A stretch of 64,000 bases of DNA. Source: a virus (lineage: Duplodnaviria; Caudoviricetes). Below the pieces are notes generated by a model that was not told the origin of the DNA, made no database searches, and was given only the letters and a program-made list of their open reading frames with translations. Where the stretch lies: IMG/VR virus record IMGVR_UViG_3300032236_001024, positions 64,001-128,000 of that record; one strand, 5' to 3'. Positions 51,017-54,138 of the stretch are shown here, piece by piece (position 1 is the first letter of the stretch; each line of letters starts with the position of its first letter). A program made the translations under genes and the position numbers.

Positions 51017-51044
51017 ATATTACCATACTCACATGGGGTGTCAA
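51017..51044 (-). promoter_or_regulatory. Early sigma70-like promoter
   Basis: Minus strand TTGACA-N16-TAATAT with TG extension and an A/T-rich upstream tract. Confidence 0.75.
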
Positions 51045-51054
51045 GCGTTTATTT

Positions 51055-51082
51055 AAAAAAAGATAGGGGATTTCTCCCCTAC
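51055..51082 (-). terminator. Intrinsic terminator
   Basis: TAGGGGA-GAAA-TCCCCTA stem-loop followed by a U-run on the minus strand. Overlaps the stop codon of 51079..51279. Confidence 0.8.
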
Positions 51083-51279
51083 CAGTCTATCGTATAGCCG
51101 CTTTCCTTGGGGAAAAGAACCTTGTAGTCGGATTCCACATCCCACATGGCGTGACCTGAGTAACCTTCGTATTGCCAAGCTTGTACTACCTCGCCTTTCT
51201 CATCCATGACTCTGAGGATGTAGTTGAGCATCTGAGACTCAAGTTTGGTGTCGTTTGGAAGTTGGATAACTTTGGTCAT
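51079..51279 (-). CDS. Early hypothetical protein
   Basis: Open frame with SD, ending in a terminator. Confidence 0.6.
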   Translation of the reverse strand: MTKVIQLPNDTKLESQMLNYILRVMDEKGEVVQAWQYEGYSGHAMWDVESDYKVLFPKESGYTIDW

Positions 51280-51552: not shown

Positions 51553-51580
51553 ATATTAACATACCCACATAGGGTGTCAA
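51553..51580 (-). promoter_or_regulatory. Early sigma70-like promoter
   Basis: TTGACA-N16-TAATAT followed by gaatcat, nearly identical to the 51017 promoter. Confidence 0.75.
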
Positions 51581-51591
51581 CTGTTTTTATG

Positions 51592-51618
51592 AAAAAAAGA
51601 GGGGTATTATCCCCTCTT
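51592..51618 (-). terminator. Intrinsic terminator whose loop holds the stop codon of the ArfA-like ORF
   Basis: AAGAGGGG-ATAATA-CCCCTCTT followed by a U-run on the minus strand. Confidence 0.8.
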
Positions 51619-51723
51619 TAAGTGCTTGATTTTCCTTGTGTATGCACCTTTTCCCTTTTTGGGTGCAACAATTTTTTGCTGAAACTGGCGTTCAGACAGG
51701 GATTTTGCTGTCAGATTTCGCAT
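51607..51723 (-). CDS. arfA: ArfA-like (alternative ribosome-rescue factor A) 38-aa peptide
   Basis: MRNLTAKSLSERQFQQKIVAPKKGKGAYTRKIKHLKRG aligns without gaps to the recalled ArfA core (N.....L....F.Q.....KKGKGSY.RK.KH). GGAGG SD upstream of the ATG at 51723. Confidence 0.65.
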   Translation of the reverse strand: MRNLTAKSLSERQFQQKIVAPKKGKGAYTRKIKHLKRG

Positions 51724-51928
51724 TTCCTCCAATCCTTTGAATTGCCTCTGATATGTGATAATCAAGGCGGTTTGAGAAGTCTTCCAGATGGTACGTATCC
51801 ATGAAATACGCATTGGACTTGATGAAAGATATCAGATAGCCAATGGTGTAATCATCTCCTTTAAGTTGGAGAAGTGTAACAAGATTCTCAATCTTGGTTT
51901 CGATTTTATCATTAGAAGTGGTATTCAT
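51692..51928 (-). CDS. Early hypothetical protein
   Basis: Open frame, start overlapping the upstream stop. Confidence 0.55.
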   Translation of the reverse strand: MNTTSNDKIETKIENLVTLLQLKGDDYTIGYLISFIKSNAYFMDTYHLEDFSNRLDYHISEAIQRIGGNAKSDSKIPV

Positions 51929-52615: not shown

Positions 52616-52644
52616 AATGTAGCAGGGGGTTTCCCCCCTGTCAA
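52616..52644 (-). promoter_or_regulatory. Early sigma70-like promoter with an inverted repeat in the spacer
   Basis: TTGACA-N17-TACATT. The -35 end and spacer contain CAGGGGG-GAAA-CCCCCTG. Confidence 0.7.
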
Positions 52645-53028: not shown

Positions 53029-54138
53029 ATGGCTAGGGCTAATGCCAAGATCAAGGTCAGGAAGTCTCATTCTGAGACCTATCTGATCAACAAGAAGTAC
53101 TACGGTGACGAGCCTACTTTCGAGGCTGGTCATGAGCGTTCCAAGATGCTTGGGGCGTTCAACTGGTACAACACGATGGCTGATGAGGATGATGTTCGTC
53201 AGTACATCACTGAGTATCTCAAGTCTGTCAAGGCGGATATGGAAGCAAAGAAGTTTACTCGTGTCCCTTTCATGCGTGTTCCTCGTACAGCTGCAGCAGT
53301 TGTCCGTATGCACATGCGTGGTGCGGTTCTAGACGATGGTATGCTGGATCGTGCCAAGACCAGCATCGCTGATTGCATGAAGTATGCGGAGCAGGAGAAG
53401 AAGGACGACAATGTGGTTCGTCTTTCTATTCAGGACCATATGAACAACAAGGTCTCTGAGTTCATTGGCGAGATTGAGTCCATCCTTGATGATGGTGCTG
53501 TCGGTTTCTCCATGTACACCTCTCTGCAGAGCAACAACTTTCCTGCTGCGCTCTCGACTCGTGTTGCTGAGTACTATCGTCCCATCCAGCAAGAGATTGC
53601 GGATGCGATTGCCAAGAAAGACCCGCAACTGGTGGAAGCTTATTCTGGCTATACCAAGCCTCAGATGAAGGCAAAGCTGGCTCTGTACACTGGCATCATT
53701 GACGACTGCGAAAAGCACAGCGGAAACGTCCGCAAGGCTCGTAAGCCTCGCAAGAAGAAGGCTGTGAGCCCAGCCAAGAAGCTTAAGAGCTTCCAGTACC
53801 AGAAAGAGGATGCATCGTTAAAAATCTCCTCTGTCAATCCTGAGAGTGTTCTGGGAGCCCAAGAGCTTTGGACGTTCAACACGAAGAGCAAGGTGCTTTC
53901 TGTGTTTCGTGCAAGGGGTCCAGCTGGTCTTGAAGTCAATCGTACAGCAATCGCTGGTTACGATGCTGATACCTCCATGTCCAAGAAGATTGGACGCAAG
54001 ACGGAGGAAATTCTCAAGACAGTCACCACTGGTGGTAAGGTGACACTCAGGAAACTGTTTGACACCATCAACACCGACAAACTCAAGTTTGTTGACCGCC
54101 TAAATAGTAGCACAGTACTATTGAAGGTGGTTAGGTGA
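53029..54138 (+). CDS. Conserved T4-like hypothetical protein (early)
   Basis: 369-aa ORF with EPTF...FNWYN and KISSVNPE...GAQELWTFNTK motifs. GC-rich codon usage. Confidence 0.75.
   Translation: MARANAKIKVRKSHSETYLINKKYYGDEPTFEAGHERSKMLGAFNWYNTMADEDDVRQYITEYLKSVKADMEAKKFTRVPFMRVPRTAAAVVRMHMRGAVLDDGMLDRAKTSIADCMKYAEQEKKDDNVVRLSIQDHMNNKVSEFIGEIESILDDGAVGFSMYTSLQSNNFPAALSTRVAEYYRPIQQEIADAIAKKDPQLVEAYSGYTKPQMKAKLALYTGIIDDCEKHSGNVRKARKPRKKKAVSPAKKLKSFQYQKEDASLKISSVNPESVLGAQELWTFNTKSKVLSVFRARGPAGLEVNRTAIAGYDADTSMSKKIGRKTEEILKTVTTGGKVTLRKLFDTINTDKLKFVDRLNSSTVLLKVVR

Follow-up and report, generated by a model that had tools for sequence, protein, structure and literature searches.

A 38-codon ArfA-family gene with its stop codon ahead of the predicted transcript end in an uncultured 202-kb T4-type phage

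A small gene of the ArfA ribosome-rescue family, referred to here as mini-ArfA, was found in the genome of an uncultured T4-type phage of 202 kb. The ORF can be regarded as a genuine ArfA-family gene which is predicted to be expressed, and its stop codon precedes the predicted 3' end of its transcript. In the usual account ArfA serves some beta- and gamma-proteobacteria as a back-up factor, with tmRNA gating its synthesis by way of a non-stop mRNA. The reading that we favour, with moderate confidence for the full mechanistic statement, is that the phage product would be a constitutive, tmRNA-independent rescue factor which recruits RF2. The phage record is complete, with terminal repeats, 35.7% G+C and 21 tRNA genes. 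The locus was analyzed within a window of 64,000 nucleotides (the whole stretch of DNA under study), on whose minus strand it is read. Its features are distributed as follows:

51692..51928, minus strand: upstream gene of 78 codons, to which no function is assigned; over its final 32 nt it shares sequence with the ArfA gene, which is read in a different frame
51726..51730, minus strand: Shine-Dalgarno-like GGAGG, 2 nt 5' of the ATG, read from the sequence
51723..51607, minus strand: ArfA-family gene of 38 codons, from the ATG at 51723 to the TAA at 51609-51607, identified by PF03889, PDB alignment and codon variation
51596..51619, minus strand: intrinsic-terminator hairpin with a 9-bp stem and a 6-nt loop AUAAUA containing the UAA stop; the T-run extends to 51592
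51553..51580, minus strand: sigma-70-type promoter of the next early cassette (TTGACA, 16 nt, TAATAT, with TG)
52616..52644, minus strand: candidate promoter of a five-gene early operon (TTGACA, 17 nt, TACATT, with TG)

A previous sequence-only reading of this DNA had described a basic ORF of 38 amino acids hidden within a longer one. This description is exact: the encoded peptide is strongly basic and identical to the one quoted there, and the ORF is nested, in this window only, in a 68-codon ORF opening at an ATG at 51813. The same gene is present in six related IMG/VR contigs (L006-L011). In all six an in-frame TAG is located 9 nt 5' of the ATG, which fixes the start at 51723, as had been proposed; translation from 51813 is excluded by this TAG, and the longer ORF is an accident of one genome. 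The spacing of 2 nt between GGAGG and the ATG is short, which counts against the main explanation. In place of GGAGG the relatives carry AGGAG at 3 nt. An AAGGA is also present 9 nt 5' of the 51723 ATG. Gene calls in public data elsewhere yield an identical 38-aa protein, for which the PF03889 assignment is precomputed. Pfam and PHROG searches assigned the 78-codon upstream gene to no family.

Codon variation in the related viral contigs indicates that the mini-ArfA gene is under purifying selection. Over codons 12-38, five distinct copies show 9 variable codons with synonymous changes only versus 2 with amino-acid changes; the corresponding ratios in the two alternative frames are 2/8 and 0/10, and the constraint is therefore frame-specific. 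Both residue-changing codons fall in the tail of the peptide that is encoded by the hairpin.

The correspondence between the peptide and ArfA, which the sequence-only reading had proposed as a colinearity with the E. coli core, is borne out by profile and structure-database searches. The Pfam family PF03889 (ArfA) is matched with 31.9 bits (E 8.7e-8), above the curated gathering cut-off of 25.5, and the alignment spans profile positions 22-43 of 44, i.e. the C-terminal half only. In a six-frame search of the whole genome (202,141 bp) mini-ArfA is the sole PF03889 match. A phmmer search against all PDB chains retrieved ArfA chains only (5U4I, 5MDV, 5H5U and 5MGP), phage residues 9-38 matching native E. 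coli residues 20-49 without gaps, the final four residues included. An alignment by MAFFT with Providencia ArfA and other homologs is also gapless, from the conserved Asn (N14 in E. coli) through the KH motif, and the phage peptide covers the counterparts of E. coli residues 12-49. PF03889 is matched as well by 10 of the 11 phage homologs, and neither PHROGs nor NCBIfam has a family for the peptide.

In E. coli, RF2 is recruited by F25 of ArfA together with the strand Q27-E30, and the KH motif occupies a pocket in the mRNA channel (PMC8012679). In the alignment, at the level of sequence, F14 and Q16-K17-I18-V19 of the phage peptide occupy the positions of F25 and Q27-E30. The KGKG loop and the RKxKH motif are retained: KKGKGAY-T-RKIKH falls on E. 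coli residues 33-45 in the alignment, beyond which the peptide runs on to the equivalent of residue 49. Ribosome-bound E. coli ArfA is ordered only to residues 46-48, a natural active product is devoid of the last 17-18 residues, and shortening to 40 residues abolishes activity (PMC8012679). The phage peptide ends approximately where this active truncated form loses order (PMC8012679).

The N-terminal part is more divergent: the counterparts of E. coli residues 1-11 are absent, a Lys is found at the position of A18, and Pfam leaves this part unaligned. The N-terminus of E. coli ArfA (residues 1-14) gains order only with open RF2, and the A18T substitution leads to a loss of RF2 activation, binding being kept (PMC8012679). 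Because of the missing residues and of the Lys, activation of RF2 by the phage peptide may differ from that in E. coli, or may not occur; these two traits, which recur in chromosomal alphaproteobacterial homologs, may also characterize a subclade rather than a loss of function. ArfA/RF2 pairs are moreover reported to be species-specific (PMC8012679), which counts against the main explanation. At the sequence level the phage gene is a member of the ArfA family, within a subclade with a short N-terminus found in Alphaproteobacteria and their phages. The in-ORF hairpin is a regulatory hallmark of the studied genes, not a family criterion.

The terminator hairpin begins directly after the His34 codon. 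Its energy is -14 kcal/mol alone, and the surrounding region of 66 nt has a z of -4.5 versus shuffles. The hairpin is kept in the six relatives, two of which (L010 and L011) show one compensatory change from A-U to G-C and one G-U wobble. The TAA of the loop is invariant and comes ahead of the terminator's 3' arm in 7/7 copies (this genome and the six relatives); about 15 nt separate it from the 3' end predicted in the T-run. Since the TAA precedes the 3' arm in all copies, the simplest reading is an mRNA that bears its stop and is independent of tmRNA, and the earlier claim that the mRNA keeps its stop codon is supported. The organization of the phage gene is thus not the canonical one, in which a terminator inside the ORF gives a non-stop mRNA. 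The position of the stop within a terminator, to which the sequence-only reading had drawn attention, is confirmed as such; it is not unique, since the neighbouring 66-codon gene (51279..51079, minus strand) has its TAG stop in the 5' arm of the terminator stem 51083..51062. Stops placed in terminators are therefore a habit of this compact region and not a peculiarity of the ArfA gene, and the loop position is probably a by-product of compaction upon an ancestral arfA-type hairpin. The point that matters is that the stop codon comes before the transcript end, not that it is located in the loop.

The promoter of the next cassette starts 16 nt past the T-run of the ArfA terminator. A near-identical promoter (51044..51017, minus strand) follows the next terminator, the terminator-promoter module being repeated at 51083..51017. 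No terminator-like site was found between the promoter at 52644..52616 and the hairpin at 51619, so that the ArfA gene is the apparent last gene of a five-gene early operon.

With respect to the host, blastn comparison of the region with GenBank phages, in near and distant modes, gave no match. Homologs of the neighbour gene 53029-54138 occur in T4-type phages that infect Alphaproteobacteria (Rhizobium phage RHph_I1_18, the Sinorhizobium phiM12 group and Caulobacter phage Cr30), and the host is most likely an alphaproteobacterium. When 401 alphaproteobacterial genomes were searched by blastn with the tmRNA of the phage, the only matches were stretches of 36-60 nt in the conserved core.

This tmRNA is of the permuted, two-piece kind and is located at G000:C1:23988-24355 in the same genome (locus L017:977-1305). 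ARAGORN gives its tag as ANDNNAYDVALAA, and the Rfam model alpha_tmRNA (RF01849) is matched over its full length with 128 bits. Searches of the phage genome for SmpB and for RF-1 domains found neither, and consequently both rescue routes would need host partners. A permuted alpha-type tmRNA and a stop-bearing mini-ArfA occur together in this genome, in a close relative of 157 kb (G006), in a distant relative of 110 kb (G008) whose tmRNA flanks are about 50% identical at the protein level, in a 338-kb phage (G007) having nothing in common with this one beyond these genes, in Brevundimonas phage Bajun, and in Erythrobacter phage XM05, which is unrelated to this phage outside these genes and whose tmRNA is detected by Rfam only. 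The permuted tmRNA of Bajun (L120:1527-1959) is found by ARAGORN and Rfam in agreement (57 bits with Rfam). This observation stands against the paper on the Brevundimonas phages, which reports that no tmRNA was detected (PMC10070969).

No tmRNA was found beside the ArfA-like gene in Caulobacter phage Cr30, Citromicrobium phage vB_CbaS-RXM, Roseobacter phage CRP-212 and two incomplete large contigs, and a search for alpha tmRNA in five smaller ArfA-bearing viral contigs revealed none. The tmRNA-like matches of Brevundimonas phages Gurke and Kikimora were rejected, as they are under the Rfam threshold and ARAGORN finds none. The Methylophilales phage Melnitz has a tmRNA and no ArfA match. A tmRNA is paired with a stop-bearing mini-ArfA in no fewer than four independent lineages of large phages. 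This pairing is a lead, its tally being that of a handful of large genomes without a base rate. A broader proposal, which we put forward tentatively, is that large phages of Alphaproteobacteria repeatedly build a two-part rescue kit from their own permuted tmRNA and a stop-bearing mini-ArfA. ArfA would be uncoupled from its tmRNA gate, both routes would be active at once during infection, and ribosomes would be kept available under host-mRNA decay or cutting by defence nucleases.

The distribution of ArfA-like genes was then considered in phages and bacteria. ArfA genes of 36-60 codons were already annotated in phages of Alphaproteobacteria before this analysis, and the novelty attached to a phage ArfA in the sequence-only reading was overstated: such genes are in GenBank, and gp10 of phage RXM is mentioned as ArfA in a paper of 2022 (PMC8953757). 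By tblastn against cultured phages, ArfA-like ORFs were found only where the hosts are Alphaproteobacteria. The annotated RXM gp10 has 60 codons and a hairpin past the motif. In the three Brevundimonas phages (Bajun, Gurke and Kikimora) the genes have 36-38 codons and plain stops, and in XM05 42 codons and a plain stop. KIKIMORA_04590 is annotated as an alternative ribosome-rescue factor, and the CDSs of Bajun, Gurke and XM05 are unnamed. In Cr30 an unannotated ArfA-like ORF (L002:1447-1599) lies between two annotated CDSs; it ends in RKGK and its stop overlaps the next ATG. In CRP-212 a 41-codon ORF (L004:1492-1617) occupies an alternative frame of the acidic 3' end of the 1203-codon gp38, which corresponds either to an overlapping gene or to an over-extended gp38 annotation.

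A pattern scan of IMG/VR identified 62 loci with 34 distinct peptides, which fall into three types: stand-alone genes of 34-43 codons with plain stops; the classical form with a hydrophobic tail; and a third type, in which the ArfA module is fused to an uncharacterized C-terminal domain. The fusions (L026, L030-L035, L058, L061, L064, L065 and L070) are 101-247 aa long, and Pfam sees their ArfA part only. Their C-terminal domain is conserved over 60 residues, with the motifs NKAGNYTKP and GQWSARKAQMLA, and terminates in AGGGY. Other phage lineages have a short ArfA of 34-43 codons with a plain stop and no hairpin, in some cases overlapping the start of the next gene. A profile searched against 1.84 billion cluster representatives matched 849 clusters at E <= 0.001. 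The 150 best of these have a median length of 48 residues, and 61 of them are no longer than 45. Of the 86 representatives with the strict motif, half (43/86) end at most 8 residues past it. The short stop-bearing form of ArfA is common in nature and yet essentially undescribed. This abundance, together with the co-occurrence of stop-bearing mini-ArfAs with phage alpha-type tmRNA in at least four unrelated lineages, is what is new here.

In bacteria, reviews confine ArfA to some beta- and gamma-proteobacteria (PMC8012679), and a survey found arfA in 0 of 2,376 Alphaproteobacteria (PMC11633108). In our sample of 401 alphaproteobacterial species genomes PF03889 was matched in 10, of which 8 are above the cut-off. 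The published beta/gamma-only range of ArfA appears incomplete and gives no ground for excluding the phage gene. The genes of high-GC Alphaproteobacteria (L094, L096, L104 and L108) have about 45-50 codons and a hairpin or clear terminator within the ORF, over the RRRPKH codons, a layout indicative of the classical non-stop design. Three others (L101, L106 and L107) belong to genomes of 1.2-1.3 Mb with 25-30% G+C, and consist of 34-40 codons with plain stops. A short N-terminus is common to all these genes and to the phage, with 2-4 residues before the conserved Asn versus 13 in E. coli. Two further observations were made during this survey. A TPP riboswitch (L101:1404-1491, minus strand) directly adjoins the mini-arfA of a 1.2-Mb low-GC alphaproteobacterial genome. 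A 4.6-kb contig of a MAG labelled 'Gammaproteobacteria' (L080, 41% GC) encodes the same mini-ArfA, without any difference, as the 338-kb viral contig from which L024 comes; it is probably a piece of phage DNA that binning placed in a bacterial MAG.

From the homology to ArfA we infer ribosome binding, RF2 recruitment and a role in rescue, in the following way. Where host ribosomes have stalled at the 3' ends of broken messages, the basic C-terminal KKGKGAY-x-RKIKH would enter their empty mRNA channel, F14 and the strand Q16-V19 would recruit host RF2, and RF2 would release the nascent peptide. With the TAA upstream of the transcript 3' end, translation would terminate in the ordinary way and give an untagged 38-mer, escaping tagging by tmRNA. 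Early transcription would then set the level of mini-ArfA, which in E. coli depends instead on whether trans-translation is saturated. The phage would in this manner add two host-dependent rescue routes, its permuted tmRNA and mini-ArfA, a plausible benefit being that ribosomes are not tied up during the destruction of host mRNA or its cleavage by defence nucleases.

Other explanations were weighed against this one. The peptide might fill the empty mRNA channel without activating RF2, and act as a competitor which blocks host tmRNA-SmpB or ArfB, either to steer rescue to the phage tmRNA or to shut down host rescue. The absence of the first 11 residues and the Lys at the A18 position go in this direction, as do the ordering of the E. 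coli N-terminus only with open RF2 and the A18T phenotype, in which activation is lost but not binding (PMC8012679). We nevertheless consider a competitor unlikely. The sequence-only reading was right that the N-terminal residues are missing; their absence extends to the whole clade, chromosomal genes included, and this argues against an inhibitor. Rescue is favoured over inhibition because the chromosomal alphaproteobacterial homologs with this same short N-terminus keep the in-ORF terminator, which is the classical design of a tmRNA-gated back-up factor; the RF2-contacting Phe and strand, needless for an inhibitor, are in addition conserved in the phage peptide. Far less credible still is a chance ORF, or a decaying remnant devoid of function. 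The gene is indeed very short and has 32 nt in common with the end of another gene, but this explanation, which we hardly entertain, is at odds with the frame-specific purifying selection, with a PF03889 score over the threshold and with the 849 related clusters of the profile search.

The remaining alternatives concern the stop codon. It might couple translation to termination: a ribosome paused at the TAA would cover the 5' arm of the hairpin, and RNA polymerase would read through into the next cassette, which begins only 16 nt past the T-run. The stop is located exactly in the loop in 7/7 copies, as such a device would have it. However, the next cassette has its own strong predicted promoter, and as the neighbouring terminator also overlaps a gene stop, compaction is a sufficient cause; coupling of this kind seems to us rather improbable. 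The gene might also still be gated by tmRNA, if processing or premature termination removed the TAA, in which case most of its mRNA would be non-stop and the stop in the loop would be a fail-safe. The placement of the hairpin just past RKxK(H), as in the arfA genes of Providencia, of alphaproteobacterial chromosomes and of phage RXM, is consistent with such a residual gate. The stem is however merely 9-10 bp long, and a stem of 9-10 bp is short for RNase III; a T-run follows it, with the expected 3' end about 15 nt past the TAA; and in several other phage lineages the short gene ends in a plain stop, is devoid of a hairpin and, in some cases, overlaps the next start. A residual gate is accordingly very improbable in our view, and a stop-bearing messenger for a rescue factor recruiting RF2 is the explanation that we retain.

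Compared with known systems, mini-ArfA is homologous to and colinear with E. coli ArfA (YhdL; PF03889; 5MDV, 5U4I, 5H5U, 5MGP) over residues 12-49 of the latter. Common to both are the Phe and the strand that contact RF2, the KGKG(S/A)Y loop and the RKxKH motif of the mRNA channel. Mini-ArfA differs from the E. coli protein in being phage-encoded, in having neither the first 11 residues nor the hydrophobic tail, and in the Lys at A18; in the phage gene, unlike E. coli arfA, an in-frame stop precedes the end of the transcript, and tmRNA gating is not expected. Gp10 of RXM belongs to the same family but has the classical layout, with a hairpin after the motif in a 60-codon ORF including a tail, whereas the versions of the Brevundimonas phages and XM05 are likewise short (36-42 codons) with plain stops. 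None of the annotated phage ArfA genes (RXM, Kikimora, Bajun, Gurke and XM05) has its stop in a terminator loop, and none has been studied past annotation. The chromosomal alphaproteobacterial genes (L094, L096, L104, L108, and L101, L106, L107) agree with mini-ArfA in the core and in the short N-terminus, (K/R)(R/K)NP-x-A. Those from high-GC genomes differ from the phage gene by the terminator within the ORF, and those from the low-GC genomes of 1.2-1.3 Mb resemble it by their plain stop.

BrfA of Bacillus subtilis, likewise a small rescue factor that depends on RF2, also places a KH motif in the mRNA channel (PMC8012679). Except for this KH it has no detectable homology with the phage peptide, and it is produced from a non-stop mRNA. 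The two-piece tmRNA of Melnitz and of pelagimyophages is a rescue component of T4-type phages of streamlined aquatic bacteria (PMC9004378), and the paper describing it does not mention ArfA. The tmRNA of the present phage is of the same alpha type. Unlike the ArfA peptide, the Melnitz-type tmRNA is an RNA which acts by trans-translation.

The ArfA family is now found in a phage in a minimal form of 38 residues with an ordinary stop, as part of a large and barely described clade distributed among phages of Alphaproteobacteria and small low-GC alphaproteobacterial genomes. With this distribution, the range of taxa given for ArfA would need to be corrected as well. If active, the phage peptide would be the smallest natural ArfA, and the 11 N-terminal residues of E. 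coli ArfA would be dispensable in some RF2 contexts. Ribosome rescue would then be a resource that phages actively supplement.
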